Below, in pieces: positions 2,321-63,680 of a stretch of 64,000 nucleotides of DNA; positions within the stretch are counted from its first letter, which is position 1; each line of letters opens with the position of its first letter. The position numbers and the translations under genes were made by a program. The stretch spans positions 896,001-960,000 of the forward strand of contig CAVYRF010000002.1 in assembly GCA_963770895.1 (NCBI GenBank), given 5' to 3'. The notes below the pieces were generated by a model that saw only the letters and a list, made by a program, of their open reading frames with translations, made no database searches and was not told where the DNA came from. Source of the DNA: an uncultured Acidobacteriota bacterium. Lineage in GTDB: Bacteria > Acidobacteriota > Thermoanaerobaculia > Multivoradales > UBA5704.

Positions 2321-2402
2321 CTAGCCCACTCCATCATGTCCGCCTCGTTACCGCTAAACCCTGATCGGCGCGATCGGCTGCGATGAGGCGACCTAGCATC
2401 GA

Positions 2403-4652: not shown

Positions 4653-4718
4653 TGCCTCCGATACTTCGCTGCCGAGTTGGAGCGGCACGGAGGGGGGATC
4701 GAATATGCTTGCGCCCTC

Positions 4719-5948
4719 ATGGCGCGGGCGGCGGTGCAGGTGGCTCGGATGTCGACCGGCGAGGCGCGGCGACTGCTGCTGGGCGCCCAGGGGCTGTTGG
4801 CGCGGCCGCCGCGGGCCACGGCGGAAAGCGTGTACCAGCTGGTCCTGCAGCTGGGATACGTGCAGATCGACTCGATCAATGTCGTCGAGCGCGCTCACCA
4901 CCTGATCCTGGGATCCCGGCTGCTCGGCTATCGGCCGAGCCTGCTGCAGGGACTGCTGGAACGGCAGCGGCGCCTGTTCGAGCACTGGACCCATGACGCC
5001 GCGGCGATCCCGACCATTCGGTTTCCCCATTGGCACGAGCGCTTCGAGCGTTTCCGCCGCTCGACCCGCCTCTGGTGGCGGGAGCGGATGGGGGAAGACT
5101 CCCTCGCAGTCGTCGCGCGGGTGCGGGAGCGCCTGCGGCTCGACGGGCCGCTCGCGGTGCGCGAGCTGGCCGCGGCGGAAGGCCATGCCGGCGGCGGCGG
5201 ATCCTGGTGGGGATGGTCGCCAGCCAAGGCGGCGCTGGAATACCTGTGGCGGACGGGCGAAGTCGCCATTGCCGGCCGGCGCAGCTTCCACAAGGTCTAC
5301 GACCTGGTGGAGCGGGTGCTGCCGGAGGCCGCCGCCCTGCCGCCCCCCGGCCCCGCCGTACACGTCGACTGGGCATGCAGAACGGCGATCGAACGCCTGG
5401 GGGTGGCGACACCCGAAGAGGTGGCGGCATTCTGGCACTCGATCCCCGCCGCCACGGCACGGCGATGGTGCACCGATGCCGCCTCCCGCGGCGAGCTGAT
5501 GGCCGTCTCCGTGCAGGCGGCGCCCAAGACGGTCGACGCGCGGCCAGGGCGCCTGGCCTTCGCCGTTCCCGACTGGCAGGAGCGGACGCACATCGAGCCC
5601 GCCAGCGGCGCCATGCGCCTGCTCTGCCCCTTCGATCCCATCCTGCGCGACCGGCGCCGGGCGCTGCGGCTGTTCGGGTTCGACTTTCGTTTCGAGGGCT
5701 TCGTGCCGGCGGGACAGCGGCAGCACGGCTACTACGTGATGCCCATCCTGGAGGGAGAGCACCTGGTCGGCAGGATCGACCCCAAGCTGCACCGTCAGTC
5801 GCAGCGGCTGGAGGTGCGATCCGTCCGCTGGGAACCAGGCATCCGCGCTTCCCGCCGCCGCCTCGCCGCGCTCGACGCCGCCGTCGGCCGTCTCGCCACC
5901 CGCCTGGGCGCAACCGCCTGGGACCTACCACCCGCGGCCAAGCACTAG
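4719..5948 (+). CDS. ycaQ: YcaQ/AlkZ-family crosslink-repair DNA glycosylase (winged-helix HTH_42)
   Basis: QIDSINVVERAHH (QxD catalytic motif), FEHWTHDA, LLCPFDP, RQHGYYVMPIL, LVGRIDPK; start uncertain (4677/4719/4749). Confidence 0.88.
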   Translation: MARAAVQVARMSTGEARRLLLGAQGLLARPPRATAESVYQLVLQLGYVQIDSINVVERAHHLILGSRLLGYRPSLLQGLLERQRRLFEHWTHDAAAIPTIRFPHWHERFERFRRSTRLWWRERMGEDSLAVVARVRERLRLDGPLAVRELAAAEGHAGGGGSWWGWSPAKAALEYLWRTGEVAIAGRRSFHKVYDLVERVLPEAAALPPPGPAVHVDWACRTAIERLGVATPEEVAAFWHSIPAATARRWCTDAASRGELMAVSVQAAPKTVDARPGRLAFAVPDWQERTHIEPASGAMRLLCPFDPILRDRRRALRLFGFDFRFEGFVPAGQRQHGYYVMPILEGEHLVGRIDPKLHRQSQRLEVRSVRWEPGIRASRRRLAALDAAVGRLATRLGATAWDLPPAAKH

Positions 5949-6147
5949 TGGCCTGTCCTGTTCGAATCGAAAGCGCCTGGCTTGCCCTCGACGGGGGGGG
6001 CTGCGTTCCGACCTGCCGGGATGCCAGGACAGGCGACAGCCCTGGCCGCCTCCTCGGCATAGTTCCGACTATGCCTGCGTCGGCGCGCCTGGCCCGCGCC
6101 GCCGAATGGCGGCGCCAGCCGCTTTCGATTTCTCCAGGACAGGCCAC
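5948..6147. mobile_element. MITE family B, 200 bp
   Basis: 34-bp imperfect TIRs GTGGCCTGTCCTGTTCGAATCGAAAGCGCCTGGC / GCCAGCCGCTTTCGATTTCTCCAGGACAGGCCAC; internal hairpin GGCATAGT-TCCG-ACTATGCC; flanks CTAG/CAAG; no transposase. Confidence 0.7.
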
Positions 6148-45616: not shown

Positions 45617-45633
45617 CTAGTGCCCCGCACTAG
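45617..45633. repeat. Hairpin direct repeat at the dGTPase stop
   Basis: CTAGTGCCCCGCACTAG; the 16-mer TAGTGCCCCGCACTAG is identical to 47042-47057. Confidence 0.85.
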
Positions 45634-47054
45634 AGCGGCTTGAACATGGTGGTGAAGACGTCCGAGCTGAGGCGCGCGTAGAACTCGGTGGCATAGCGGT
45701 CTGTCATGCCGGCGATGAAGTCACAAATCACGCGCGGGCGCTGCATCTTGGAAGCTTGCTGGTACCGCTGATAGAAGTCAGCGGGCAGGAGCGCTTCGCC
45801 CCCTTCTGCCGAGAGCGCCCTGAAGATCGATCGCACTACCTGTTCGCCTCGATGCGCCACCATCCGGAGCCTCGGCGAGGTGATCAACAAGACATAGCTC
45901 ATCTGCTTGAGCACCGACACCTGGATGCGCTCGTCCCGGCGCATGGTCACGCGCGAAAACGCCGGCCGGCGGCGATCGAGGTCAAGTTCGACGGCATGGA
46001 TGAACTGATTGACCAGGGTGCTGGTCAGAAAGGTCCGATAGAAACCGATCGACGCCAGCTGCCTGGCGTTGTTAAACGTTTTGCCGGCCTCCCTGAGATA
46101 CCAATCCTGCCAGTCCGCGGTCGGCGCATCGGGGGGAGCGGCATAAAACAGCAGCTTGAGGACGTCACGGACATCGCCGACCGTCACGCCTTGGTCGAGC
46201 TCCGCCGAAACTCGTCGCGCCACATCCGAGGCCACCGTGTCATTGGGATAGAGCATGTCCAGCGGCAGGAGCAACCCTCCCTTGAAGGCATCTTCCAGGT
46301 CGTAGGTGGAATAGGCGATGTCATCCGCCAGGTCCATGATCTGACACTCGACCGCCCAAAACTGGAAAGATCCGTCAAAGGCGAGGTCTTGCTTGACGCG
46401 CTCCACCACCGGCAGCTCCGAAAGGTAGTACCCCTTGACCAGCTTGTCGTCAGGGCCGCGCTGGAAAGGGATCGCAGTGTCGTACTTGAGAATCGATGCC
46501 AGGGTACGAGAGCAGAGATTGAGACCGACGGCCACGTCCTCATCGTGGCGGTACCAGACCGGGCTGCCCGCCGCAATCTGAGCGTTTGGGTCATCCAACT
46601 TTTTTTCCAACCGGCACAGGATGCGCAGAGTCTGGGCGTTCCCCTCGAACCCGCCGAAACGGTGCATCTCCTGGTCGAGCACAGCTTCACCGGTATGGCC
46701 AAACGGTGGATGACCCAGGTCGTGAGCGAGGCCCGCGAACTCGATCAGGTCCTCGTCGAGTTGCAGATGCGAGGCTTCCAACTCGACGTTCAACTTGCGG
46801 GCAATGGTCGCCGCGATCTGCGCGACTTCAAGGGAATGGGTGAGCCGATTGCGAAAGAAATCCGATTCCAGGCCGGCGAACAGCTGGGTCTTGCCCTGGA
46901 GGCGCCGAAAGGCAGCGCAATGAATGAGCCGCGCTCGGTCCCGCCAGAAAGGCGAGCGCCAGGGCGGCTCATGGCCGGTACCCTTGCCCAGCTCAATGGC
47001 GAGGGCGCGGCGGTAATCGGACTTGCGGTACAGCGGTGCTGTAGTGCCCCGCAC
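45630..47054 (-). CDS. dgt: dGTP triphosphohydrolase (HD family)
   Basis: RDRARLIH..AFRRLQGKTQ, RLTHSLEVAQ, AHDLGHPPFGHTGE, FEGNAQ, ADDIAYS, DFIAGMTDRYA. Confidence 0.93.
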   Translation of the reverse strand: MRGTTAPLYRKSDYRRALAIELGKGTGHEPPWRSPFWRDRARLIHCAAFRRLQGKTQLFAGLESDFFRNRLTHSLEVAQIAATIARKLNVELEASHLQLDEDLIEFAGLAHDLGHPPFGHTGEAVLDQEMHRFGGFEGNAQTLRILCRLEKKLDDPNAQIAAGSPVWYRHDEDVAVGLNLCSRTLASILKYDTAIPFQRGPDDKLVKGYYLSELPVVERVKQDLAFDGSFQFWAVECQIMDLADDIAYSTYDLEDAFKGGLLLPLDMLYPNDTVASDVARRVSAELDQGVTVGDVRDVLKLLFYAAPPDAPTADWQDWYLREAGKTFNNARQLASIGFYRTFLTSTLVNQFIHAVELDLDRRRPAFSRVTMRRDERIQVSVLKQMSYVLLITSPRLRMVAHRGEQVVRSIFRALSAEGGEALLPADFYQRYQQASKMQRPRVICDFIAGMTDRYATEFYARLSSDVFTTMFKPL

Positions 47055-47374: not shown

Positions 47375-47450
47375 GGGGCAGTAGCTCAGCTGGGAGAGCA
47401 CCACGTTCGCAACGTGGGGGTCGAGGGTTCGAATCCCTTCTGCTCCACCA
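47375..47450 (+). tRNA. tRNA-Ala(CGC)
   Basis: 76 nt; GGGGCAG/CTGCTCC acceptor stem with G3:U70; anticodon loop TTCGCAA; GGTTCGAATC; encoded CCA. Confidence 0.98.
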
Positions 47451-48434: not shown

Positions 48435-51400
48435 TTAGTTGCAGGGCAATGCGTTGGTGTCCTGGACGGGGAGCGCGGCGGTCAGGTCGGGGTTGGTGTA
48501 GGTCTTCACTTCGTTGGTCTGGGTGTCGGTGACGGTGACGGTGAAGCCGACGTTGGTGCCGGCGGCGTAGAAGATCCAGTAGCGGTTGTTGACGCCGCAG
48601 GCATTCAGGACCTTGACCAGCATCTCGGGGTTGGTGGGGTTGAAGAACCAGAAGAGGCCGCCCTGGGACACTCCCAGCTCGGCCAGGGCGATCGCCTGGC
48701 CGTCGCCGTTGCTGCCGCCGCCTTGCGCGGTGTGGTAGTGGGCTTTGACGGCGAAACGGTCGCCGATGCATAGCTGGGTGGACGTGGTGGCGCAGCCGGC
48801 CTGCGCTGCGGGCGGCGGCACGACCGAATCGGCGGCGGTGGTGGGCGGTGCGGGCGCGTTGTTCGCGCTGGCCGCTGTTGTCGCCGCATCACCCGCTTCG
48901 CTCGCGACAAGCGCTGCGGTCGTGTGGCTCGCGGCGGCCGCGCCGAGCGCGGCGGGCGTCCCGCCGGAAACGATTACGTCGCTCGGGGAGCTGTCGGCCA
49001 CGGCGGACGGTGGCGGGGCTGGGGCGGCGAGGCCGGCGGTGGTGCAGGAGAAGGCGGCGGTGTCCTGGACAGGCAGCGCGGCCGTGCCGTCCTGGTTGGT
49101 GTAGACCTTGGTGCTGCCGGTGACCGAGTCGGTGACGGTGACGGTGAAGCCGACGTTGGTGGTGGCAGACGAGAAGACCCAGTAGTGCTGATTGACGCCG
49201 CAGGCGTTCAGCACCTTGAGCAGCATTTCGGGGTTGGAGGGGTCGAAGAACCAGAAGAGGCCGCCATGGGAGACGCCGATGTTGGCCAGGGCGATCGCCT
49301 GACCGAAACCGGAGTGGCCGCCGCCCTCGCTGGTGTGGAAGCTGGTGGTCACCTGCCACCGCCCGTCGCCGGGCTGGTCGTCCAGGCAGATGGTGGTGGC
49401 GCTTGCGGCGCAGCGGCTGCTGAACACGTAGATGGCGCCCTGCGCGCTGTGCAATCCAAGGGTGGCGAAGGTCGCTCCGACGGCCGCCGTCTTGCCGTCG
49501 CCGGAGAGCGCCACGATGCCCATTTCTTCGCTGGCCTGGCCGTCGCCCGCGACGAGCTTGGACACTTCGGTTGCGTCGGCCCAGGCGGCGCCGGGGCGGG
49601 CGAAGGCGTAAGCGGCGCCCTGGTTGGCGTTGCCGTCGACGGTTGCGGCTCGGGTGCCGCCCAGGATCGTGCTGCCGTCGTCGCTGATCGCCACCGAGGT
49701 GCCGAAGCTGTCGTTGCGGGCGCCGTCGGATGCGGTCAGCTTGGCGATCTGGGTGCCGTTGGCCCACCCGGAGGTAGGACGGGCGAAGACGTAGACGGCG
49801 CCCTGCGAGGCCTTGCTGTCGATGGCGGCGCCGCTGGCGCCGGCGGCGATGGTCGCGCCGTTGCTGCTGACCGCCACACCGAATCCCAGCTGGTCGCCGG
49901 CGGCGCCATCGGACGCGGTCAGCTTGGCGGTCTGGGTGGCGTTCACCCAGGTGTGGCTGGGCGACCAGGTGTACACATAGACCGCGCCCTGCGTCGCCTT
50001 GTTGTCGACAGTCGCCGCCGCACCGGCGGCGATGGTCGCGCCGTCGCCGCTGATCGCGTTCATCAGGCCCAGGCCGTCCTGGGCGGCCCCGTCCGAAGCG
50101 GTGAGCTTGGCGGTCTGCGTGCCGCTGATCCAACCGTTGGTGGGGCGGGCAAAGACGTAGAGCGCCCCCTGCGCGGCGTGGCTGCCGATCATGGCATGGT
50201 CGGTCGATGCGACCACGGTGGTGGCGTTGGCGTCGATCGCGACGGCACGCAGCTCGTCGCCCGCGGCGCCGTCTCCGGCGGTGAGCTTGGCCTGCTGCGT
50301 CTGGTTGGTCCAGGCGGTGCCGCCGCGCAGGAAGACGTAGACCGCCCCCTGCCCGCCATGCCCGCCCACCGTGGCGAAGGGTGCCACCGCCAGGATCGTC
50401 GAGCCGTCGGCGCTGATCGCGACGCCCTGGGGGAAATCGCCCAGCTGGTCGCTGGCGGCGCCGTCGGAGGCGGTCAGCTTGGCGGTCTGCACGCCGTTCG
50501 CCCAGCCGCTCACCGGGCGCGAAAACACGTACACCGCGCCGGCGGCGGCATGCCCCCCCACCTCGGCTTCGGGCGCCCCGGCCACCACCGTCTGACCGTC
50601 GTCGCTGATCGCCACGGCGGCTCCCAGGTTGTCGCCCGCGGCGCCGTCCGCTGCCACCAGCTTGGCCACCTGCATGAAGGGGTCGACCGTCACCGGATAG
50701 ACCGCCCCGGCGTCCTGCACCTCGACCAGCAGCCGGTCGCGGCGCAACGCAAAGCGTGCCGCAAGCTGCCGACCGCGCGCGTCGTAGGCCGTCAAGCCGC
50801 CGTAGCGCAGCACCGGACCGCCACCTGCCAACGTCGTCGCTGCCGGCGGAGGCAGCAGCGTCAGGTCGCGTCCGTCCACCGAAACCGCGGCGCGCAGATC
50901 CCCTGCCAGCGCCAGCTCGAGGCGCAGCGCCCCCGCACCGGCCGGCGCGCGGCCGATCGTCCACCCCTCTTCGAGGCCCGCCGGGCCGTTGACGAACCAG
51001 GTGTCGACAGCCCCGCCACCGCCGGCGATATCGCTCGCGAAGTCGACCCGGTTGCGCGCCGTCCTGCGCGCCCTGAGCCGAGCGGCGTCGGGCGCCGCCT
51101 GCCGTTCGCCATCGCGCCCGACCACCGCCGCCGACAGCTGCCAGCGGTGGCCGCCGGCGGCAACCTGGACGCCGCCATTGCGGACCAGCGCCGAGGCGCC
51201 GCCACCGGCCAGCGTCGCGGCATAGCCGCCGCCCTGTGCGGTCAACGCGTACCCAACGTCATCGCGCCCCAGGGTCGACGACACGACCGCGCGCAGCGCC
51301 GGCGAGTCGGGAAGAGCCGCTGGCGCCGCGGCCGCACTGGCGACCGAAGCACCGCTCAGCACCCCCAGGGCCAGCCCGCCCCAGGCCGCCGCCACGTGGG

Positions 51401-51461
51401 TCAGGCACCGGCGGGTCCGGGCGCGATGAGGATCGGCCTGCGGGGGCTGGGCATGCAGCAT
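48435..51461 (-). CDS. Secreted 7-bladed FG-GAP (integrin-alpha-like) propeller protein with two C-terminal FWFF domains
   Basis: Seven AKLTASDG..GD..G..VAIS.DG....GA.......GAVYVF repeats; two GGLFWFF.P.NPEML.KVLNACGVN domains; GAAAGGA RBS. Confidence 0.9.
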   Translation of the reverse strand: MLHAQPPQADPHRARTRRCLTHVAAAWGGLALGVLSGASVASAAAAPAALPDSPALRAVVSSTLGRDDVGYALTAQGGGYAATLAGGGASALVRNGGVQVAAGGHRWQLSAAVVGRDGERQAAPDAARLRARRTARNRVDFASDIAGGGGAVDTWFVNGPAGLEEGWTIGRAPAGAGALRLELALAGDLRAAVSVDGRDLTLLPPPAATTLAGGGPVLRYGGLTAYDARGRQLAARFALRRDRLLVEVQDAGAVYPVTVDPFMQVAKLVAADGAAGDNLGAAVAISDDGQTVVAGAPEAEVGGHAAAGAVYVFSRPVSGWANGVQTAKLTASDGAASDQLGDFPQGVAISADGSTILAVAPFATVGGHGGQGAVYVFLRGGTAWTNQTQQAKLTAGDGAAGDELRAVAIDANATTVVASTDHAMIGSHAAQGALYVFARPTNGWISGTQTAKLTASDGAAQDGLGLMNAISGDGATIAAGAAATVDNKATQGAVYVYTWSPSHTWVNATQTAKLTASDGAAGDQLGFGVAVSSNGATIAAGASGAAIDSKASQGAVYVFARPTSGWANGTQIAKLTASDGARNDSFGTSVAISDDGSTILGGTRAATVDGNANQGAAYAFARPGAAWADATEVSKLVAGDGQASEEMGIVALSGDGKTAAVGATFATLGLHSAQGAIYVFSSRCAASATTICLDDQPGDGRWQVTTSFHTSEGGGHSGFGQAIALANIGVSHGGLFWFFDPSNPEMLLKVLNACGVNQHYWVFSSATTNVGFTVTVTDSVTGSTKVYTNQDGTAALPVQDTAAFSCTTAGLAAPAPPPSAVADSSPSDVIVSGGTPAALGAAAASHTTAALVASEAGDAATTAASANNAPAPPTTAADSVVPPPAAQAGCATTSTQLCIGDRFAVKAHYHTAQGGGSNGDGQAIALAELGVSQGGLFWFFNPTNPEMLVKVLNACGVNNRYWIFYAAGTNVGFTVTVTDTQTNEVKTYTNPDLTAALPVQDTNALPCN

Positions 51462-51711
51462 GGCGAGCGTCCTTTCTGACCGGGTCCGCAGCAACTTAGA
51501 GCGTGTACTGCCAATCTAGACCATCGTATTGGCAGTTGGCTATAGCACGCGGCTGCAATTCCCCTGCCGGGTACCCGCAAGCCCCGCGGTCGCTTTGGCC
51601 GTCCAGGCACCCCGATGGCCGTTCCCAGCGCCGAAACTCGCCTGAGAACGCGCTCGCCCACAGCGCGCTGCGGCTGCGAGCTCCCTGACGGTAGGCTGGG
51701 TCCACGCAACC

Positions 51712-51740
51712 TTGCACCTATCGCGCCCCGGGAGTACATC
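51712..51740 (+). promoter_or_regulatory. Promoter for a leaderless DUF433 transcript
   Basis: TTGCAC-N17-TACATC ending 6 nt before GTG 51747. Confidence 0.5.
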
Positions 51741-51746
51741 CGAAGC

Positions 51747-51959
51747 GTGAACGTCGCCGTTCTCTCCCGCGACCCCGAGGTAATGGGGGGCACTGCCGTA
51801 TTCCCGGCGACTCGCGTACCAGTCCAAACGCTGATCGAGTACCTGGAAGCAGGGGAAACCATCGATGACTTTCTCGAAGGCTTCCCCTCCGTCAAACGAG
51901 AGCAGGTCATCGCCTTTCTGGAGGCAGCGACCGAGCGCCTGGTGGCCGCGACCCCGTGA
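51747..51959 (+). CDS. DUF433 antitoxin
   Basis: RDPEVMGGTAVFPATRVPVQTLIEYLEAGETIDDFLEGFPSVKREQV. Confidence 0.9.
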   Translation: MNVAVLSRDPEVMGGTAVFPATRVPVQTLIEYLEAGETIDDFLEGFPSVKREQVIAFLEAATERLVAATP

Positions 51960-52123
51960 GGGTCCTCCTTGACGAATGCATCGCGCCCTCAAGTCGGCCC
52001 AACCTGGTACGGCAACCCACGTGGAGCTCTGATCCGCAAACCCTCGTCTGCTGTGACAAGGTCGGTCAGGCGCAGCGTCGTACTGCTGGAGGCCAAGGAC
52101 GAAGCCGCGGGCGCCGGGGCTGA
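51956..52123 (+). pseudogene. Truncated DUF5615/PIN toxin
   Basis: GTGA-coupled start MRVLLDECI, after which similarity to the family is lost. Confidence 0.7.
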
Positions 52124-52197
52124 GCCGACCAGGGTCTCCGTGCTGCTGAAAGACGGCGTGGGGAAGATCGATTTCAAGCGGGACAAGCCAGGAGAGG

Positions 52198-52350
52198 TCA
52201 CGCAGCGCCCCAAAATCTCGTGGACCCTCGTCGGTTGGTGGCCGCTCGCCCAGGGCGTCCTGGAGCTCTAGCGCTCACCAAGCCATTTGAACCGGCCGCT
52301 CGCGTCAAGACGATGAGTGGTGAAGCGTTGACCGCGGGCCTCTCAGCCAC
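52198..52350 (-). pseudogene. Truncated DUF3368/PIN toxin
   Basis: MAERPAVNASPLIVL N-terminus only, overlapping the UPF0175 stop. Confidence 0.65.
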
Positions 52351-52460
52351 GCTCCAGCTCGTGCTGCAAGTCGTCGAAGTCCACGACGAAGGCATCGACG
52401 CCTTCCCGCGCCAGCGCCATCAAGAAGTCGGTTCGATCCGAGCCCGCAACCTGGTTTCTC
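52343..52460 (-). pseudogene. C-terminal remnant of a UPF0175 antitoxin
   Basis: QVAGSDRTDFLMALAREGVDAFVVDFDDLQHELERG; the 5' part is missing where the upstream cassette ends. Confidence 0.65.
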
Positions 52461-52491
52461 AGTGGCTCTCCTGGCCGGAGCGGAACTCGGA

Positions 52492-53631
52492 CTATCCGAC
52501 TGCTGCCCTGGCGATTTCCTCGATTCTCTCGCTCCGAGCCTGAACCTCGAGTTGGCGACAGTTGCATGCGAGCAGATTGTCAAGGTGAAGCGCGTATCGC
52601 AGAGTCGCCTTTGCCACGGTACGAGCCTTGCGCAGTCGCGACTGAAACTCTTCACAATGAGCAGGTATCAGTGAAGCTGGGACACGTTGAGGGCTGCGGT
52701 AGAAGCAGTCGTCAACGGGGGGTACGCCGGCAGCGAACCGCAGACATGCCAAGCGATAGTCCAGGTAGCGTAAGTGCCGAGAAAAGAGATTATGGACATC
52801 CTGCCGCATCTTTGGCAGCCGGAGGAACTCGGCTCGGCTCGGATGGGATTCGCCAGCGGGATCGCCAGCGTCGAGATCTAAAAGATGGACCCGAACGATC
52901 GACTCACTGAGAATGTCGGCTGTATCGTCTCGCTGAACTTCGCTCGCCCGATCCATGTAAATCCGTAGCAGCTCTCGAAGCATCACAGGTGATTGCCCCT
53001 CGGCCAAGGCGAGGTCCAACCCTGCATCTGCAATGTAGCGCTCGACCGTCGCCGACCCCTTCCACCGTTTCAGGGCAGCGAGCCACTCCCTGCTATCTGA
53101 AAATCTACCGAGCTCCGTGCAAATGCCAGCTGCCAGATATGCCAGGTACTGCCGAGAGGACTCGGCAAGTTCCGGGAGCTGATACGTGGCCTCACAAAGA
53201 CCCAGGGCCTTTCCGCAATCGCCACATCTCATGGCCCATTGGACCTCAAATTCGGAGACGTCATTCGCCAACTGACGATCGTTGCCGGCGTATACTCTGA
53301 GGTCGGCGACCAAGCGCTCCAGCCGCGACCGTTCCGGCCTCGCACTGAGAGTGATGTGAGCTAAATACAGCCGCGACAGCCATGCATCCCGCCGAGGGGC
53401 TTCCTCCGGCTCCGATTGACGCGCCTCGAGGAGCAGTTTAAGGCCGCCGCGACAGTCGCCTGAGATTGCGGTTGAGATGCCGGCCTGCACCATCGCCTTG
53501 AACCAGACCGCGCGATTGCCAACCGCAAGTGCAGCCGACGCCGTGCTCCGAAATAGCAGGGCTGCTTCTGCAGAACGGCTGGCGCGGCTCGCCCGCCAGG
53601 CTTCGTCGAGAAGTTCGTCATGGTGTGCCAT
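52492..53631 (-). CDS. Hypothetical all-helical/TPR-like partner of the Hsp90-NDT fusion
   Basis: 379-aa ORF from ATG 53631 (a TTG at 53661 overlapping the upstream stop is possible), co-oriented with the Hsp90 gene and similarly lower in GC; Ala/Leu-rich helical repeats. Confidence 0.75.
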   Translation of the reverse strand: MAHHDELLDEAWRASRASRSAEAALLFRSTASAALAVGNRAVWFKAMVQAGISTAISGDCRGGLKLLLEARQSEPEEAPRRDAWLSRLYLAHITLSARPERSRLERLVADLRVYAGNDRQLANDVSEFEVQWAMRCGDCGKALGLCEATYQLPELAESSRQYLAYLAAGICTELGRFSDSREWLAALKRWKGSATVERYIADAGLDLALAEGQSPVMLRELLRIYMDRASEVQRDDTADILSESIVRVHLLDLDAGDPAGESHPSRAEFLRLPKMRQDVHNLFSRHLRYLDYRLACLRFAAGVPPVDDCFYRSPQRVPASLIPAHCEEFQSRLRKARTVAKATLRYALHLDNLLACNCRQLEVQARSERIEEIARAAVG

Positions 53632-53650
53632 GGTAATGACAGTCGGCGGC

Positions 53651-56353
53651 TCACATGGCAAGGTTGTCTCTGATGCGCCTCAGTACGACTGCGGCAAGGT
53701 CTGCCTCTCCGCCAAGCAAGCTTTCGAGCTGCTTCTCATCTGCCTTTCTCCACACCGTTCCAGTTGGATACGCCTCGCTAAGGCGATCGTAAAGAACTTT
53801 CGACGGGAGGATCTCCTTGGTCCAGGCGCGTAGCGCTCGCGGCGAGATATACTCCTCGCGTCCTTCCCGCTTGAGCAAGACGCTCAGCCGCTCGTTTCTG
53901 CGAAAGCCCTCCTCAAGCTGAGTGGCGATCTCTGTTGCGGTCTGGTCTGACTGATAGAGCCCCCCCGTGATGTGGCCGGCGAGGTCAGAGGGAAGCGTAG
54001 GGGTGTCGCCGGCGCTCGCAACGCGGGCAATGAGCAGACTCGGCAGATGACCGCGGCCGTACAGCGCGGCCCCCAGCTCCATCATAACGTTGGGGTTCGC
54101 GCCACTCACGTCGGCAACGAAAAAGTCCGCATCGTTGAGATGCGCCTCGACATTGCCACGAATTATATCCTCAAAGGTTCGCTGATCGGCGGTCCGGAGC
54201 TCACAGCCGAGGCGGTCTTCCACCGTCATGCGCACGGCCTCCCGTGAGACGTCGAATTCCTTTGAAAAGGGAGTCATCAGAAAGGCGGTGAGATGCGTTC
54301 GTTCGCGTCGCCGCGGCAGAGTAATTTGTCTGCGCTGCTTGTCCAGCTCCGCCCGCTCATGAGCCATGGTCACCTTCTCCACCAGGAACTGAAGCGATTT
54401 GCTCATCAGGCGTTGAAACTGAGCATGAAAGATTTGCGCATTGCTGGGAGTCATGAGCTCTTGATTGTAGAGAATTGCATCGTTATAGACGCAGAGCATG
54501 AGGTCGACCAGGTCTTCGTCATCGGGATTGACCTCGACCAAGCTAGCGAGAGACCGGATCAAGGGATTGGCGGCGTTGATGCTCATCCGCATATCGGCGT
54601 TGCGGCTCAGAATCAGCATCTCCTCTGCCATGACGCGCAGATCGGAAGGACTGTTCGGATCGTTGAGGATGCTTCGGGCCTTCATGCTTCCCTGCGCGAC
54701 CTCGTTGCTTTTCAGCACGGCAGGCAGGGAATCCGGCTGGAAGCGACGCGGCTCCACTCGCAAGCGGCCGGTGCCGCCGGGCCGCAAGCGGTGCGACATC
54801 TGTTGAGCCAGGATCCGGACGGCGCGATCTTGCGTTGGATCTACCTCGCGAAAAACGGTAGGGTCGTCCTCGCGATCCACATAGACGAGACACAGCGCTC
54901 CCTTTCGGCGTTCGACCCAGGTCTTGATCAGCTCGGCCTCAAAAAAGTAGCTAGCGTCTACGACGGTTGTGCCGGCGGCATCCGCCATTTCGAAGAACTG
55001 GTTCGCAGAGCTGCGCGTCGTGAAGCAGGGTAGGCGTTTACTGCCATCCCCCTCCCGGGCGGGGAGGGCGGCTTCGATCTCCGACAGGGTCGCCCAGGTG
55101 TAGTTCGCCCCAGCATCTTCGCTGACAAAGCGGCGTCCTCCGTGCCATGTGCGGGCGCTTGACGCCGCCGATTTGGCGTTGATTCTCCATTCCAGGAGGT
55201 GGGCGAACTTGTCAAAGAATGGATCGTAGTGAAAGCAGGCAGCCTTGATGCCAAGGTCGTGGAAGGCCAGGATCTCCGAGAGGCGCTGGGGCTCCTTCTC
55301 CCGCAGGTGCTCGAAATGCCTGACGATGATGTCGCCGAGACGGTCGCGGAGCGCCGTAAAGCTGGAATCCCGTGTGAAGTTGTCGCGCGCCGCGTTCGGC
55401 GAAAGACTGCTGGTATTGATGATCCCGTTGACAAAGCGAGCCCAAGGCGGCAGGATCTCCTTGGCCTCCTCGCACAGGAACATGCGCTTGAGGAACACTC
55501 TCACCGTCCGGGGCGCATCGGTGGCGATGAGGCGAGTGCGGGTGATGTAGAGCAGGCCCTCTGCATGAAGCGCCGGAACGCCGCCCACGGCCGGGTCAGT
55601 AATATCTATTGGGATTACTTCGAGGACACTGTCTGGGACGGTGCGCTCCAGGTAGATCATGCTGTCAAAGCGCATCTCGGATTCGGAGATGCCATTGCGC
55701 TCCCATGGCATCACCATGGTGTTGATCTGTGCGCCATGATGCCCTGGATCGTTCAGGTAGATAGGGATGCGGAGCATGTCCGCATAGGTGCGGACGACCT
55801 TCTTGATGAAGTCCTCGTGCAAGAGGCCGCGGTCTTCAGCAGACCTGAGGTGAACCGTAACCTCTGTGCCGATGGTTGGGAGCGTGCAGGGCGAAATCGT
55901 GTAGTCCTTGTTGCCCGAGTTCTCCCAGAGACAACCGTTGTCCGGAAGTGCGTCCCAAGCGCGCGTGCGGACCTCCACACGGGCACCCACCACGAACCCG
56001 GATAGAAAGCCGATACCGAACTGGCCGATCGCATCCGGCACCTCGTCCTTGGCAGCTTTCGTCCCAGACTTACCTATGGTCGAGAGGAAATCCTCCAAAT
56101 CCTGCACACTCATGCCGATGCCGTTGTCGCGAAAAACGATGCGGGCCGGAGAGGCCGTCAGGTCGGTCAAGATCCCGATATGCCCCTGCTCGCGGCTGAA
56201 CAACGGATCTTTGGTGGCTCGGCGCAGGATGGCATCGTGGGCGTTCTGTATGAGCTCTCGGATGAACACCTTCTTTTCCGAATAGAGATGCCCGGCGAGG
56301 AGCTGGATCAGGCCGTCAAAGTCGAAGGTCATCTCATTGTGGATAGTGGGCAT
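53651..56353 (-). CDS. Hsp90/HtpG-family ATPase fused to a nucleoside-2-deoxyribosyltransferase/TIR-like domain and an HhH-like tail
   Basis: LYSEKKVFIRELIQNAHDA, DNGIGM, IGQFGIGF, GTEV, PNAARDNF, INAANPLI; then AFLMTPF...ADFFVADVSGANPNVMMELG...LPSDL; tail RLSEAYPT...KADEKQLESLLGG. Confidence 0.9.
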   Translation of the reverse strand: MPTIHNEMTFDFDGLIQLLAGHLYSEKKVFIRELIQNAHDAILRRATKDPLFSREQGHIGILTDLTASPARIVFRDNGIGMSVQDLEDFLSTIGKSGTKAAKDEVPDAIGQFGIGFLSGFVVGARVEVRTRAWDALPDNGCLWENSGNKDYTISPCTLPTIGTEVTVHLRSAEDRGLLHEDFIKKVVRTYADMLRIPIYLNDPGHHGAQINTMVMPWERNGISESEMRFDSMIYLERTVPDSVLEVIPIDITDPAVGGVPALHAEGLLYITRTRLIATDAPRTVRVFLKRMFLCEEAKEILPPWARFVNGIINTSSLSPNAARDNFTRDSSFTALRDRLGDIIVRHFEHLREKEPQRLSEILAFHDLGIKAACFHYDPFFDKFAHLLEWRINAKSAASSARTWHGGRRFVSEDAGANYTWATLSEIEAALPAREGDGSKRLPCFTTRSSANQFFEMADAAGTTVVDASYFFEAELIKTWVERRKGALCLVYVDREDDPTVFREVDPTQDRAVRILAQQMSHRLRPGGTGRLRVEPRRFQPDSLPAVLKSNEVAQGSMKARSILNDPNSPSDLRVMAEEMLILSRNADMRMSINAANPLIRSLASLVEVNPDDEDLVDLMLCVYNDAILYNQELMTPSNAQIFHAQFQRLMSKSLQFLVEKVTMAHERAELDKQRRQITLPRRRERTHLTAFLMTPFSKEFDVSREAVRMTVEDRLGCELRTADQRTFEDIIRGNVEAHLNDADFFVADVSGANPNVMMELGAALYGRGHLPSLLIARVASAGDTPTLPSDLAGHITGGLYQSDQTATEIATQLEEGFRRNERLSVLLKREGREEYISPRALRAWTKEILPSKVLYDRLSEAYPTGTVWRKADEKQLESLLGGEADLAAVVLRRIRDNLAM

Positions 56354-56370
56354 AAGCAGATTTTACCGCA
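56354..56370 (-). promoter_or_regulatory. -10 element giving a leaderless transcript of the Hsp90-NDT gene
   Basis: TAAAAT (56365-56360) exactly 6 nt before ATG 56353; no SD sequence. Confidence 0.55.
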
Positions 56371-56525
56371 GCTGGACCGGGATATTGGGTGAAGGCCGTT
56401 GAAATTGGCAGCTGCCGAGGACGCTCGTATCGCTCATTAGCCATAGGCGGATCAATGAGGCGCCGATGGTCAGCTGGCTGGCGCTTGTCTATACGACGGC
56501 GCTAGTGCCGCCAGCACCCGCTCGC

Positions 56526-56567
56526 ATGGCCGGCCGATTCCCGTTGCTTATGGATGAACACGTCCCG
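56526..56567 (+). pseudogene. Possible DUF5615/PIN toxin N-terminal remnant
   Basis: MAGRFPLLMDEHVP ends exactly at the stop codon of the oppositely oriented DUF433 gene. Confidence 0.45.
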
Positions 56568-56879
56568 TTATGGGCCGACTCCGTGGCTGACCTGAATGGG
56601 ATTCGGTTCGGCCAGCCTTCCAAGCTCCGCGTCTTCGGCGAGCGCTGCGTCAATCTCGGCTTGGTGGTCGTAGTAGTAGGCGAGAGCGGCATGAAGCTCG
56701 CCGCGCGTCAAGGTACGGGACGAGAAGTACTGCAGCAACTCGTCGTCCGGCACTCCGGCCCGCCGCGCGGCAACGATGTCCATGACACGCACGCGGGTGC
56801 CGGCGACGCACGGACGGCCGCTCATCACCTGAGGCTGCGTTGAGATGTGCGGGTACGAGAGGCAGGGGACCGCGACCAT
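56568..56879 (-). CDS. DUF433 antitoxin (second copy)
   Basis: YPHISTQPQVMSGRPCVAGTRVRVMDIV...LHAALAYYYDHQAEID. Confidence 0.88.
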   Translation of the reverse strand: MVAVPCLSYPHISTQPQVMSGRPCVAGTRVRVMDIVAARRAGVPDDELLQYFSSRTLTRGELHAALAYYYDHQAEIDAALAEDAELGRLAEPNPIQVSHGVGP

Positions 56880-56969
56880 AAGGCATCTCACAATAGCACC
56901 CCGCGGCACTGCCGCTTCGAACTCGCACGCTAATCTGGTCCGAGGCCCGAAGGAAACCGGCTCCCGCCG

Positions 56970-57258
56970 GGGCACCGAGCCGACCAAGCCATGGGCACCG
57001 AGCCACCCAGGCCATGGGTACCGAGCCGGTTGCCGGGGGCTGGGGGGACCCCTCGGCGGCGCTCTGGGGCGAAGCAAACCTGCTCATCGGCCGGCGCCCC
57101 TCCCGCAGGCCCCCACCGCCAATCGAGCCCCAGCGCGACGACCGAGGGGTCCCCCCCAGTCCCCGGCCATCAAGGCCTGGCGCGCTGTCGAGAGGTGCCC
57201 TCCAGTTCCCGGCAACCGGCCATCAAGGCCTGGCGCGCTGTCGAGAGGTGCCCTCCAG
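56970..57258. mobile_element. Family A element copy 2 with flanking tandem repeats
   Basis: Three 23-bp-period GGYACCGAGCC units (56970-57027), TIR-bounded core 57028-57171 similar to 2403-2548, and two 42-bp direct repeats at 57164-57205 and 57217-57258. Confidence 0.75.
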
Positions 57259-57279
57259 CGGCCGCCGCCCCCCCAGCGT

Positions 57280-59571
57280 CTACCGCCGGGGGAGCAGGCT
57301 CTTGCCGTCGAGGCGCTCGGGGGGGGCGACTTTGTAGAGGTCGAGGATGGTGGGCATGACGTCGCCCATTTTGGCGTCGGCGGCGTCGAGCTTGAAGTTG
57401 CTGAAGAGGATGCCCTTGACCAGGGGCGGATAGACGGAGCAGTGGTCCCCGGACCAGATCTGGTCGTTGGGTTCGACGATGGTCTTGCCGATGCCGCCCA
57501 GGCTGTCCTGCCAGCCGACGCGGTAGCCCTCGCTGTTGGAGGGGATGAGGTCGGGGATCAGCTCGGGATCGTAGGTGCCGTAGGCCTCGTCGCGGGTGAA
57601 GACGTGGGCCACGGGGTGCTCACCGGTGTCGGGATCGACGTAGGACTGCAGGCCGGCGATGATGGCGGCGGTCACCTGCTTGTAGTCCTCGCCCGGCTTG
57701 ACGATGCCCTTGGCTTCGCGTCCGGCGAGGTTGATGTAGATCTGGCCCAGGCCCAGGGCGTAGGCCTTGGTCTTGGACCAGTCCACGTTGACGAAGAAGT
57801 CGCCCTGGCCGAACAGATCTTCCAGGTTTTTGCGCTTGGTGTCTTCGCCGGTCAGGCTCATGAAGCCGTTGGTCGCCAACCAGGTGTTGTAGTTCATGCC
57901 GCGGCGGAAGGAAGCGAAGCCGTGGTCCGACACCACCATCAGCGCGGTGCCGGCGGGCATTTTCTGCATCGTCTCGCCGACGATGTCGTCCATCTGCTGA
58001 TAGGCGGCCAGCACCGACGGGCCCCAGCGCTTGGCGCCTTCGGCGGTGTAGAGCGGGTGCTTCGGATCGAGGAAGCGGAACATCATGTGCTGCACCCGAT
58101 CGGTGAATTCGAAGTAGTGCACCATCACGTCCCAATCGTCGTCCGCCAGCTGCGTGCGCAGGATCTGCCGATCCTTGTCGACGGTCTGGCGAACGTCTTC
58201 CAGGAACACCTGCTCGTCCGAGGTGCCGTCGGTGAGCGACCAGGTATCGATCATCCAGCCGATGGTCTTGAACAAGCCGAAGCGATGGGTCAGGTCGCCG
58301 ACAAAGGAGCTGGGCGCGGTGATGGCGAAACCGGGGGGCAGGCGCTCGGGATCGAATTGAATGGGCGACAGGTAGATGCGCAGCTCGGGCGCCACCGACA
58401 GGACGCGGAACTTGCCGATGCCATGCACCTGGATGAGCCGGTTGAAGGGGAAGGTGAAGCGCGCCCAGTCGCTCCATTGGCCGGGCTTCAAGGTGATGTC
58501 GTTGCCCGAGACCTGGATGCGCACGCTGGCGCGGTCGGGGGGCACGGTCAGGCGCATCGGGATCGAAATGAAGTCGCCGTGCTGCGGGAAGAGGTCGTTG
58601 GGGACCTCCTTGATCTCGGTGTCGATCACCCCTTTGTTGTCGGGCAGCTCGACCACTTCCACCTTGAAGTCGCCGCCGCCCTTGGGGGTGAAGAACAGCT
58701 CCGAGGTGAAGTAGAACGGCTTGCCGATGCGCGCCGACAGGTCGGGCGTGCCCAGGCCGCTGAGCAGCCGGCCGTGCTCGAACTCCTTGGGCGGGAAGGT
58801 GACCGGCACCCGCATCACCCGCACGTGCTTGCCGGCGTTGCCCAGGATGGACCAGAAGGTGGCGCCGCGCTGGCGGTTGAACGGCACCGGGTGCTGCTTG
58901 GGCAGCATGCGGTTGGCGGCGTAGCCGAAAAACAGACCCGCGGCCACGGCGACGACCAGCGCGGCCGGCACGCCGAACACCAGCCGCCACCGCGGCGAAA
59001 CGAGCCGCCGCCGCACCAGCACCGCCACCAGCGCCCCCAGCAGGAAGACCGCCGCGCCGGCAATGCCGCCGACGACCCAGCCGTTGTTGGCGCCCCACAG
59101 GAAGGGCTCCTTCTTGACGTCGAAGGCGGCAAAGCTGGGGTGGTAGGTCTGCGGGTCGCGCTTGAGGAAGTCGAAGATGCCGTGACGGCCAGGATTGAGG
59201 CCGGTGGCAAAGGTGGACCACGACACCGGCGTCTGCGACGGGATGGTCGACAGCAGCGGCGCGAAGGTCCCCTGCCGCGCCAGCGCCGCCAGGTGGGGGA
59301 GCTTCCCCTCGTCCATCCACTTCTGCGTCAGCTTGGCGTCGGCGCCGTCGAAGCCCAAAATCAACAGCCGCCGCGGCGGCTGGCCGTCCGCGCCCACGGC
59401 CGCCGCGGCGCCGGCTGCCGGAGCGGCGTCGGCGGCGCGCATCGCCCGCACGTGGACGGCAAGCGCCGCCAAGGCCAGGACCATCACCAGGGCGGCACCC
59501 AGGAGCCGGCGGAACAGGCGCCGGCGGCCCGACCGGAGCAGAGTTTGGGACGGGGGCAGGGTCTTGCGCAT
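57280..59571 (-). CDS. Alkaline phosphatase superfamily (type I phosphodiesterase/nucleotide pyrophosphatase) membrane protein
   Basis: LGFDGAD, STIPSQTPVSWSTFATG, DRVQH, VVSDHGF, WSGDH. Confidence 0.9.
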   Translation of the reverse strand: MRKTLPPSQTLLRSGRRRLFRRLLGAALVMVLALAALAVHVRAMRAADAAPAAGAAAAVGADGQPPRRLLILGFDGADAKLTQKWMDEGKLPHLAALARQGTFAPLLSTIPSQTPVSWSTFATGLNPGRHGIFDFLKRDPQTYHPSFAAFDVKKEPFLWGANNGWVVGGIAGAAVFLLGALVAVLVRRRLVSPRWRLVFGVPAALVVAVAAGLFFGYAANRMLPKQHPVPFNRQRGATFWSILGNAGKHVRVMRVPVTFPPKEFEHGRLLSGLGTPDLSARIGKPFYFTSELFFTPKGGGDFKVEVVELPDNKGVIDTEIKEVPNDLFPQHGDFISIPMRLTVPPDRASVRIQVSGNDITLKPGQWSDWARFTFPFNRLIQVHGIGKFRVLSVAPELRIYLSPIQFDPERLPPGFAITAPSSFVGDLTHRFGLFKTIGWMIDTWSLTDGTSDEQVFLEDVRQTVDKDRQILRTQLADDDWDVMVHYFEFTDRVQHMMFRFLDPKHPLYTAEGAKRWGPSVLAAYQQMDDIVGETMQKMPAGTALMVVSDHGFASFRRGMNYNTWLATNGFMSLTGEDTKRKNLEDLFGQGDFFVNVDWSKTKAYALGLGQIYINLAGREAKGIVKPGEDYKQVTAAIIAGLQSYVDPDTGEHPVAHVFTRDEAYGTYDPELIPDLIPSNSEGYRVGWQDSLGGIGKTIVEPNDQIWSGDHCSVYPPLVKGILFSNFKLDAADAKMGDVMPTILDLYKVAPPERLDGKSLLPRR

Positions 59572-62432: not shown

Positions 62433-63680
62433 TCACTGGCAGCTGGCGGGGAAGGCGTAGCTGTCGGTGACCGCGGGCGCCGGCAGCCCCAGGTAGTTGA
62501 AGTAGACCTTGCCGATGCCGGTGCGCACGTCGGTGACCTCCAGCCTATAGAAGACGTCGGTGGTGGCCGCCGAGAACACCCAAAAACTGCTGTCGAGCGC
62601 ACAACCGTCGATCACCTTGACCATCAGCTCCCAGTTGCTGGGATCGAAGAACCAGAAGAGGCCCGAGCCGCTGCCGGCGGCCGGACTGGCGCCGGGCGGT
62701 GTTACCGCCGGCGCGACGGGGACGACGGAGCCCACGCCGGTGGCGCCGTAGGCGGTGCGCCAGCTGACGTCGATGAGAAAGGACCCTTCCAGGCAGAGCG
62801 CCGTCGCCGTCGAATCGCCGCACGACGGAGCGACCGCCGGCCGCGTCACGCTCCAGGTACCGCCGAACGAGCCGTTGTAGACGCCCAAGGCGTCGCTGCC
62901 GTCCGCCTGCAGGCTCCACACCGCCACCAGTCCGGGCTGTGGCACGGTCAGGGCGATACTGATCGTGGCGCGGATCTGGTCCACCGTGCGCGCCACGCTC
63001 CACAGCCGCATCTCGGTCATCGTACCGGCGGGACTGTAGGGCCACGACACGTCGCCGCCGATGCGCAACGCCGCCGTGCTCACCGCCGGCGGACCCGGCA
63101 CCGCGAACGATCCGACCAGCTCGCCGTCGACGTAGTGGCTCTGCGTCGTCCCATCGAAGGTCACCGCCAGGTGGGTCCACTGCCCGGCGGGCACCGTGCC
63201 GGCGGCGAACGCCGAGCCGCTGCCGCGGAACGACGCCTGCAAGGTATTGCCGCAGACCCCGAACCAGTAGGCTTGCGTCTCATCCTTGCCGGCCAGGCTG
63301 CGGCAGGCCTGGCCGCCGAACGGCGTCGCCAGATTGACCCAGGCCTCCAGCGTGATCGCCGAGGCAGGATTGAGCGCCGGGCTGTCCGCCACCTCAAGGT
63401 AGCCGTTGCCCGTCGCCGGATCGCCCGTACCGCTCCACAGGATCGCACCGCCAAAGGGCTGCGCCGCGGCCGGCGGCGCCAACCCCGCCAACCCCGCCAA
63501 CATTGCGCTGCCGGCGGCAGCGCTCAGCAAGGCTCTGGCGACCGCGCGGCAGAGAGCCGCCGCCCCCCTGGTCGCCGCCCCGACCGCCATCGTCATGGGT
63601 GCCACCGCGGTCGCCACGACAGCCGCCGCCGGCCGGCGGCAGGAAGACACGTTGCCCAGCATGGAAATTGTGGGGATCAT
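62433..63680 (-). CDS. Secreted LamG/concanavalin-like protein with a C-terminal FWFF domain
   Basis: AAGGAGG RBS; ITLEAWV, WTHLAVTFDG, YVDG, EMRLWSVART; SGLFWFFDPSNWELMVKVIDGC. Confidence 0.88.
   Translation of the reverse strand: MIPTISMLGNVSSCRRPAAAVVATAVAPMTMAVGAATRGAAALCRAVARALLSAAAGSAMLAGLAGLAPPAAAQPFGGAILWSGTGDPATGNGYLEVADSPALNPASAITLEAWVNLATPFGGQACRSLAGKDETQAYWFGVCGNTLQASFRGSGSAFAAGTVPAGQWTHLAVTFDGTTQSHYVDGELVGSFAVPGPPAVSTAALRIGGDVSWPYSPAGTMTEMRLWSVARTVDQIRATISIALTVPQPGLVAVWSLQADGSDALGVYNGSFGGTWSVTRPAVAPSCGDSTATALCLEGSFLIDVSWRTAYGATGVGSVVPVAPAVTPPGASPAAGSGSGLFWFFDPSNWELMVKVIDGCALDSSFWVFSAATTDVFYRLEVTDVRTGIGKVYFNYLGLPAPAVTDSYAFPASCQ

Follow-up and report, generated by a model that had tools for sequence, protein, structure and literature searches.

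A stretch of 64,000 nucleotides from an uncultured Acidobacteriota bacterium (Thermoanaerobaculia; Multivoradales; UBA5704), corresponding to positions 896,001 to 960,000 of contig CAVYRF010000002.1 in assembly GCA_963770895.1 and referred to here as the window, was found to carry a cassette of two genes. The first encodes an Hsp90 paralog ending in a domain that resembles nucleoside 2-deoxyribosyltransferases (NDTs) and TIR domains, and the second a helical partner protein whose N-terminal half may be related to tetratricopeptide repeats (TPRs). Comparison with related loci revealed that this module is a real, conserved and horizontally moving two-gene unit, and established its architecture, the conservation of its residues, the linkage of its genes, its patchy distribution and its association with domains known from biological conflicts. 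We give about an even chance to the proposal that the two genes form a horizontally transferred conflict system, most likely directed against phages and of the abortive-infection type.

Both genes lie on the reverse strand. The coding sequence of the fusion spans positions 53651..56353, stop codon included, and yields a protein of 900 residues that matches a database entry (P0001) at 100%. The open reading frame (ORF) of the partner, as first called, ran through 52492..53661 and gave 389 residues from a TTG; since its homologues and the stored database copy (P0121, 379 residues, 100% identical) begin at MAHH, the likely start is the ATG at 53631, leaving a coding sequence of 379 codons (52492..53631) and a gap of 19 nt between it and the stop codon of the fusion. 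The original prediction, drawn from the bare letters of the window, had described here a 900-residue protein and, next to it, a helical ORF of about 380 residues, and both ORFs are indeed present, the second in its 389-residue form from TTG and its 379-residue form from ATG. The two genes share a strand, are separated by a short gap only and have no predicted terminator between them, and are thus probably co-transcribed. The same prediction had noted that the cassette is poorer in G+C than the chromosomal backbone, and this holds: its G+C content is 0.57-0.62, compared with 0.64-0.76 in the flanks, and the value at third codon positions is 0.63 for the partner, 0.74 for the fusion and 0.90 for the neighbouring FG-GAP gene.

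Residues 1-650 of the fusion (54404..56353) make up the Hsp90 core, which consists of a GHKL ATPase N domain, a middle domain and a C-terminal dimerisation domain. The protein scores 56 bits with the Pfam HSP90 family (PF00183, cut-off 24.4) and 38.8 bits with HATPase_c_3 (cut-off 25). Its residues 8-649 align with positions 5-613 of the 614 in the NCBIfam HtpG model NF003555, so that all three Hsp90 domains are present; the E. coli HtpG structure 2iop is matched at E 1.7e-43 over residues 14-358, that is, in the N and middle domains only. The equivalog cut-offs were missed both for HtpG (NF003555, 223 bits versus 371) and for the PRK14083 'HSP90 family protein' (NF010683, 322 versus 455). Conservation was counted in an alignment of the 120 best homologues of the fusion, in which the ATPase residues E33 and N37 are retained by 115 (gaps account for the other five), D76 is kept in 116, the glycine-rich lid (G110/G113/G115) in 119, and the transducer arginine of the middle domain, R323, in all 120; G78, also found in the window protein, falls within the range of 115-119 that covers these ATP-site positions, all other rows having gaps there. 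The conservation of these ATPase and transducer residues argues that the family is under selection for ATP turnover. Mean pairwise identity within the core is 0.50-0.56. The complete Hsp90 originally claimed, with its three domains, its ATPase residues and its middle-domain arginine, is therefore borne out, and the fusion is predicted to be a full-length, ATPase-competent Hsp90 paralog.

This paralog has a canonical counterpart elsewhere in the same genome. A search with the Pfam HSP90 family revealed a second, much stronger locus (E 1.3e-137), whose ORF matches 2iop over its full length at E 8.8e-161. In a maximum-likelihood tree built quickly from 68 Hsp90 cores, for which SH-aLRT was the only support measure, long branches separate this HtpG from the window protein, and the latter lies inside a clade of 46 rows (support 97), formed by Hsp90s that possess the TIR-like domain, the partner or both; its nearest neighbour comes from a Holophagales metagenome-assembled genome (MAG), with 87% identity over the core. 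Together with the occurrence of the partner in just one of 401 genomes of the phylum, these results dispose of the possibility that the gene is the vertically inherited htpG of this organism, and, judged by profiles and phylogeny, the fusion gene is not housekeeping htpG.

The feature that sets the fusion apart is the region of about 130 residues at positions 687-815 (53909..54295), classified here as a TIR-like domain of the NDT/Rcl-CAP12 type. PADLOC recognised an 'Effector TIR' in residues 706-810 (E 6.6e-6). When the domain was cut by coordinates from 35 loci and turned into a profile, its best match in the PDB was Rcl/DNPH1 (E 1.3e-5), and the glutamate of the family's ELG motif, E759 in the window protein (codon 54077..54079, within ANPNVMMELG), aligned with the glutamate of the YELG motif of Rcl. 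In Rcl this residue is the catalytic nucleophile, and E759 is the predicted catalytic glutamate of the fusion. Weaker PDB matches were obtained for PycTIR (8jsj, E 0.024), CAP12 (7un8, 0.48) and NDT (0.61). At E <= 0.1, PF10137, the family of CAP12 and Pycsar TIR domains, matches 24 of the 35 members, and PF05014, that of the nucleoside 2-deoxyribosyltransferases, 16 of them. Nine relatives were also scanned individually, and three of them, of cyanobacterial type, passed the PF10137 cut-off of 24.7 bits (P0061, 26.5; P0055, 25.2; P0053, 27.0), one stayed below it (P0105) and five gave no match. Position 759 is a glutamate in 110 of the 120 best homologues, the remainder being five gaps, three Q, one A and one D. 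An ESM Atlas model of a 64% identical homologue (P0020) provided further structural neighbours: its C-terminal part resembles, with TM values of 0.53-0.57, clusters in which 14-33% of the members carry PF05014 or PF10137, as well as a Cap17-like_N cluster that was the sole match to reach the tool's bar for naming a family; these neighbours are leads only. The assignment of residues 687-815 as NDT/TIR-like, with the ELG glutamate, is thus supported by sequence profiles, in agreement with what had been proposed from the motifs.

The segments on both sides of this domain are less conserved than the Hsp90 core. The charged linker (residues 651-686, 54296..54403) shows a mean pairwise identity of 0.24, and the helical, family-specific tail, which comprises the last 85 residues (816-900, 53654..53908), one of 0.28. 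The tail profile recurs in 32 of the 49 fusion loci and in a trypsin-fused copy described below. Comparison of the tail with the PDB and Pfam returned no significant match, the best being a SAM domain at E 0.1, and the helix-hairpin-helix character once attributed to it found no support there; the tail is unrelated to EAD8. We also considered whether the TIR-like domain and tail represent a widely shuffled effector. This was rejected because a search for the module in shorter proteins gave only 15 matches, many of them on short contigs. The idea that homologous Hsp90s swap their C-terminal effectors fares poorly as well: within the clade, the C-terminal module is nearly always the TIR-like domain plus tail, sometimes without the glutamate and sometimes absent altogether.

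The partner of the window matches no family in Pfam, PADLOC or NCBIfam, and in the PDB nothing significant was found, only NprR at E ~0.3. An exhaustive profile search nevertheless recovered a family of 308 clusters at 50% identity, nearly all of about 380 residues. Indirect signs of TPR character come from relatives that hhalign ties to this family: P0135 matches PF14559 and PF12895, P0159 matches TPR_19 (1.7e-6), the partner of locus L052 matches TPR_2 (6e-9), and matches were also seen in L031 and L035; in addition, P0134 is named 'tetratricopeptide (TPR) repeat protein' in its source, and P0135 has TPR clusters as its feature neighbours in the Atlas (0.93). On these signs, a TPR-like nature of the N-terminal half is suggested weakly. 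The most variable part of the protein is its middle (residues 121-250), and the most conserved one is the family-specific C-terminal third, with invariant motifs of the DYRLACLR type.

Linkage of the two genes was assessed in several ways. In six of the seven genome loci the partner lies directly downstream of the fusion; the seventh, L009, is a broken copy. Among all fetched loci, 49 have Hsp90 and the TIR-like domain in one ORF, and 35 of these extend for at least 1200 nt downstream. A match to the partner profile begins within 400 nt of the end of the fusion in 27 of these 35, in 22 cases at E < 1e-20; two of the remaining eight have the partner elsewhere in the locus, and six show no match to that profile. 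As several loci are near-duplicates of one another, these counts are not independent. The downstream genes of distant loci proved to be full-length partner homologues (hhalign probability 99.9%, E 3e-31, 359 columns), including that of L035, one of the six without a profile match, and those of L050, L052 and L053, whose Hsp90s have no TIR-like domain. The helical companion noted at the outset is upheld as a conserved one by its recurrence downstream of the fusion and by the hhalign results, and the TPR matches of relatives and the Atlas neighbours of P0135 suggest that its N-terminal half may be TPR-like. Because partner homologues accompany even those Hsp90s devoid of the TIR-like domain, the conserved core of the system is the Hsp90 paralog plus the partner. 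The TIR-less Hsp90s are nested in the TIR-bearing clade, which suggests that they lost the domain secondarily. In five loci (L009, L019, L021, L058 and L059) the fusion is split over at least two ORFs by frameshifts or stops, either as pseudogenes or through assembly errors; L009 moreover has a truncated TIR-like domain, and the partner was not found in that locus.

The distribution of the module is patchy. The partner profile was found in one of the 401 genomes sampled from the phylum, namely that of the window itself (G000), and in neither of the two genomes of the same family. The closest copies, in Acidobacteriota MAGs, are 81-83% identical in the fusion and 50-52% identical in the partner, and these nearest relatives are set in different flanks. 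Other copies occur in Abditibacteriota and Chromatiaceae, and the named matches include Planctomycetes, Cyanobacteria, Chloroflexi and Actinobacteria. This patchiness, the changing flanks and the low G+C content indicate that the cassette was acquired horizontally. Within ±10 kb, the two genomes of the same family share with the 40-64 kb part of the window only a 780-residue phosphodiesterase gene, and no insertion site could be defined from them. Around the cassette, neither direct nor inverted repeats were found in the flanks, the 3' end of the nearby tRNA-Ala gene is not repeated and there is no integrase, so that the limits of an island could not be traced; positions 51000-57500 contain no Rfam family.

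Variants of the family bear on what the C-terminal domain does. Locus L016 contains a three-gene version, in which a Trypsin_2-module fusion (1055-2338) is followed by the partner (2317-3480) and by the Hsp90 fusion (3484-6117). The Trypsin_2 protein carries a 42% identical copy of the linker, TIR-like domain and tail in which the glutamate is replaced by valine, so that this protease-borne copy is predicted to be catalytically dead. Locus L028 encodes a protein of TIR-like, EAD8 and Trypsin_2 domains, and in P0269 (1562 residues) the partner domain (residues 15-389) is joined to TPR repeats and, at the C-terminus, to a CHAT protease. From the copies of the module carried by proteases, a further role of the TIR-like domain and tail in homotypic co-assembly is suggested. 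These copies also lend themselves to another explanation, namely that this unit serves mainly in assembly or docking, in a homotypic, signalosome-like manner, and is not a killing enzyme: the Hsp90 and the partner would then be a platform recruiting trypsin-like or CHAT proteases, and in the two-gene form the output would be an unlinked protein or the assembly itself. The valine-bearing copy on a protease of the same operon, the L028 protein, the P0269 fusion and the loss of the glutamate in L025/26, L049 and L081 (the last two of which retain a degenerate TIR-like domain) fit this explanation. However, Glu759 and the NPNV..ELG motif persist in 110 of the 120 best homologues, which favours a catalytic function of the usual two-gene form, and no third gene is conserved across loci; we thus consider a mainly docking role unlikely.

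Further variation was found in gene content. An N-terminal helix-turn-helix of the XRE type is present in five of the 120 listed homologues, and in L062 the Hsp90 and the NDT/TIR-like domain are encoded by two separate genes. L046, L047, L048 and L081 have tandem Hsp90 paralogs, one of about 600 residues and then one with a TIR-like or degenerate C-terminus, with a canonical TPR gene nearby. Two paralogs of the partner coexist in L024/L042, where they are 78% identical, and in L025/L026, where the identity is 27%.

The neighbours of related loci include TPR-CHAT, kinase-TIR_2, TIR_2 and cyclase-AAA-TPR proteins. A PADLOC scan of the flanks, which covered 114 of 117 ORFs of at least 150 residues within 5 kb of the module in 26 loci, revealed a complete Thoeris pair (ThsA, 4.4e-180; ThsB, 5.3e-58) about 1.3 kb downstream of the module in L006 and the DRT3a/b pair (1.3e-107 and 3.1e-202) in L030. 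It also returned a ThsB-type TIR (L014), PDC-M05A (L056), PDC-S66 (L044) and PDC-S11 (L018), as well as generic kinase, methyltransferase and reverse-transcriptase matches. Such defence-gene neighbours point to a defence context, although as evidence they are suggestive only. The associations with trypsin, EAD8 and CHAT, the N-terminal helix-turn-helix of some homologues, the tandem partner paralogs, the variable middle of the partner, the TIR_2 neighbours and the proximity of Thoeris and DRT3 give the family the hallmarks of a conflict system, in keeping with the defence role first proposed for it. The Thoeris pair of L006, and the kinship with TIR-type domains in general, would also suit a mechanism in which the TIR-like domain, as in ThsB or plant TIRs, makes a signalling nucleotide for an effector encoded elsewhere, with Hsp90 and partner as the sensor. 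No receptor or effector gene is conserved beside the module, however, and in sequence the domain is closer to the hydrolytic Rcl and to domains of the CAP12/PycTIR type than to ThsB, and a signalling role appears improbable.

These observations can be integrated in a scheme that we hold with moderate confidence, in which the partner would be the sensor or adaptor and an ATP-driven Hsp90 switch would be linked to an effector with N-glycosidase activity, in a defence of the abortive-infection type. The C domain of Hsp90 makes a constitutive dimer and would therefore place two TIR-like domains side by side behind a flexible linker; as a rule, the active sites of enzymes of the TIR and NDT types form only in a defined oligomeric arrangement. 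The Hsp90 dimer would act as a nucleoside triphosphate-dependent switch, analogous to the STAND or GTPase modules of other immune systems, and the partner would be its specificity or adaptor subunit, which would bring or sense the trigger and either present a foreign protein to the clamp or restrain the clamp. ATP-driven closure of the N-terminal domains, or the assembly of several dimers, would be relayed to the C-terminal end, where the TIR-like domains would adopt their active arrangement. The Glu759 site would then hydrolyse NAD+ or a (deoxy)nucleotide at its glycosidic bond, and the infected cell would cease to grow. What we infer in this scheme is what triggers it, that the two proteins bind each other, what the substrate is and which phenotype results. 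A bolder version, which extends the original prediction, regards the Hsp90 clamp itself as the pathogen sensor: a phage protein, or a protein of the host that misfolds during infection, would enter it as a client by way of the fast-evolving TPR-like partner, and closure would assemble an active NADase or nucleotidase. We judge this version to be rather unlikely.

Several points weigh against an anti-phage switch with an N-glycosidase output. The domain of the window protein itself falls under every curated Pfam cut-off (for PF10137, 14.5 bits versus 24.7, E 0.037), and the TPR-likeness of the window's own partner is weak, with no Pfam match and a PDB match at E ~0.3. The nearest solved structure is DNPH1/Rcl, a housekeeping nucleotide hydrolase, and the substrate could therefore be a nucleotide instead of NAD+. 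The glutamate is lost in the protease copy of L016, in L025/26, in L049 and in L081, and the whole domain in L050-53, so that the activity of the Hsp90-partner core does not always depend on this catalysis. Searches with the partner gave no match in 72,556 plasmid records and 50,697 phage records. That a specific defence family lies within 5 kb of the module in 6 of the 26 loci is a raw count, uncorrected for background and hence suggestive only. Lastly, the surroundings of the window are not clearly a defence island, as they offer no more than a generic Ser/Thr kinase and, 5.4 kb away, a gene of the dGTPase type; co-location with known defence systems, which the original prediction had suggested surveying, is thus observed at those six related loci, and nothing convincing was seen at the window itself.

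Part of this evidence would suit a specialised chaperone-enzyme without immune function, composed of an accessory Hsp90, a Rcl/DNPH1-like hydrolase for the stress-linked sanitation or regulation of nucleotide pools, and a TPR-like co-chaperone. Its best PDB match is DNPH1/Rcl, the chaperone architecture is complete, no defence genes adjoin the cassette in the window, and the plasmid and phage collections lack it. Such a function is nonetheless hard to reconcile with a module present in a single one of 401 genomes of the phylum, yet scattered over unrelated phyla in varying surroundings, joined to or neighbouring CHAT, EAD8, trypsin and TIR_2 proteins, Thoeris and DRT3, and endowed with a duplicated and fast-evolving partner; we regard it as quite unlikely.

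The immediate flanks of the cassette raise a different alternative. It is bordered by two DUF433 genes, at 51615-51959 (+) and 56568-57077 (-), recognised at E 4e-16 and 8e-15, which are only 33% identical and face each other across it. DUF433 genes often belong to toxin-antitoxin pairs, and the cassette had initially been described as flanked by toxin-antitoxin remnants; a DUF433 gene does lie on each side, but no toxin partner of the PIN or DUF5615 type was recognised next to either one. The module itself might accordingly be an addiction unit, a piece of selfish DNA without phage sensing in which the partner would silence a TIR-like toxin, as its two-gene, G+C-poor make-up, its patchy distribution and these flanking genes would allow. 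Nevertheless, genes for 900 and 379 residues are far larger than those of typical toxin-antitoxin pairs, simple neutralisation needs no conserved ATPase machinery, and the DUF433 genes were not found beside the cassettes of the relatives. This makes an addiction module highly improbable.

Beyond these genes, the neighbourhood in the window is ordinary, with dGTPase-type, creatininase-type and GGDEF genes as well as those of a Ser/Thr kinase and an FG-GAP protein. The first of them (45630-47054, -) encodes a protein with HD and HD_assoc domains that matches the PADLOC dGTPase model at E 3.4e-116 and could be either a housekeeping Dgt or a defence dGTPase. A tRNA-Ala (CGC) gene lies at 47375-47450 (+), about 5 kb from the cassette. 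The FG-GAP gene (48435-51494, -) encodes a secreted-type repeat protein of 1019 residues and shows a periodic repeat of 183 nt, with a C-terminal unit of 603 nt that is duplicated internally; a related stretch of 111 nt recurs at 62553-62663. Tandem repeats were also observed between the upstream DUF433 gene and the phosphodiesterase gene, at 56970-57015 (23 nt, twice) and 57163-57268 (53 nt, twice, 89% identical).

The notion of an Hsp90-based immune switch is not new. Nicastro, Burroughs, Iyer and Aravind (Nucleic Acids Res 2023) reportedly likened HSP90- and HSP70-related modules to STAND and GTPase switches, so that this kind of system, Hsp90-switch immunity, has already been predicted in print, and that paper or its supplements may already list the present architecture. 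[quoted passage not shown] The predicted systems, as reported there, and the one described here share an Hsp90-related ATPase serving as an immune switch coupled to a nucleotide-targeting effector; they differ in that here the effector is C-terminal and NDT/TIR-like, the Hsp90 retains its full length with all three domains and a dedicated TPR-like partner gene is present. A full-text literature search, which did not include Nicastro et al. 2023, found no description of an Hsp90-TIR/NDT fusion with this partner, and the accessible passages of the literature on BcTir/Tpr, DUF4062 NADases, bNACHT25-DnaJ (PMC12169576), CoCoNuTs, the HEPN survey, protease effectors and PUA-Cal-HAD contain no mention of such a system.

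PADLOC-DB 2.0 holds no known system that the fusion matches over its full length, only partial matches to TmtA (residues 13-129) and to the TIR effector (residues 706-810). The former reflects the likeness between the N-terminal Hsp90-like ATPase of the window protein and that of Tiamat, whose TmtA models are matched at E 1.9e-12. In contrast to the window protein, Tiamat has DUF3684 and a PD-(D/E)xK nuclease, and it is devoid of the Hsp90 middle and C domains, of the TIR-like domain and of this partner. The Tiamat preprint (10.64898/2026.09.30.754977) proposes an ATP-driven clamp logic, with TPR-like folds as the sensor.

More distant Hsp90-like proteins were encountered in the course of the analysis. 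A viral contig (L097, 4825-7401) encodes an HD-CE domain (E 2.3e-50) fused to a GHKL ATPase, probably an Hsp90-like defence protein of the type cited in the same preprint; it shares with the window protein only the GHKL N domain (residues 31-134). Another viral contig, from IMG/VR (L091, 5956-8064), has a distant Hsp90 followed by the start of a TIR-like domain, which is ended by the contig edge. A distant clade of Hsp90s of about 600 residues (L063, L067, L069, L071, L082, L083, L086-L088 and L090) is nearest to PRK14083, below its cut-off; next downstream, one or two genes encode helical proteins of about 365 residues that belong to another family. A kinship of these (alignment A7) to the partner was ruled out, with an hhalign probability of 2.9%, and the two may constitute a second system of Hsp90 plus partner.

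As regards the effector, the CAP12 of CBASS and the PycTIR of Pycsar belong to the same TIR-like family (PF10137), which 24 of the 35 members match, with orthologues above the cut-off. Unlike the domain described here, they are switched by cyclic-nucleotide-binding domains; in the present module no such cyclase or sensor is linked, and the domain is borne by an Hsp90 dimer. Rcl/DNPH1 and the NDTs (PF05014) resemble it through the best structure match (E 1.3e-5), the aligned glutamate and the matches of 16 of the 35 members. These enzymes, together with the NDT-type effectors of retrons, are small and free-standing or are retron partners, whereas here there is neither reverse transcriptase nor msDNA. 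Retron Eco1 is an example of the use of an NDT-like effector. As for the chaperone, HtpG and PRK14083 (NF010683) have the same domain order, ATPase residues and model-alignment span, from which the window protein departs by scoring below both cut-offs, by its long branch separate from the HtpG of its own genome, by its C-terminal extension of 250 residues and by its linked partner.

A last comparison concerns the eukaryotic HSP90-SGT1(TPR)-NLR axis, which likewise unites a chaperone and a TPR protein with an immune output of the TIR type, although no homology between the partner and SGT1 was shown. In bacteria, a report on bNACHT25 (PMC12169576) shows the involvement of the chaperone DnaJ in NLR-like sensing. 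In both cases a housekeeping chaperone assists a receptor distinct from it, whereas here the Hsp90 paralog itself bears the effector domain.

The finding touches on a chaperone that is among the best studied, but whose bacterial clients and roles beyond HtpG are poorly known. A compact cassette of two genes appears to hard-wire a complete Hsp90 cycle to an enzyme of the TIR/NDT type and a TPR-like companion, and it is thereby a tractable object for asking how an Hsp90 clamp gates an enzymatic output and what such a clamp recognises; it also bears on the question of a bacterial counterpart to the chaperone-TPR-TIR theme of innate immunity in eukaryotes. Were the cassette to protect against phages, a new type of switch would join the defence systems that deplete nucleotides, with a GHL clamp where others have a STAND, GTPase or ABC module. 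Should the clamp itself prove to be the sensor, this would be the first immune system to use a bona fide chaperone cycle as its recognition step, and prokaryotes would have their own counterpart of the HSP90-SGT1(TPR)-TIR-NLR connection known from plants and animals.

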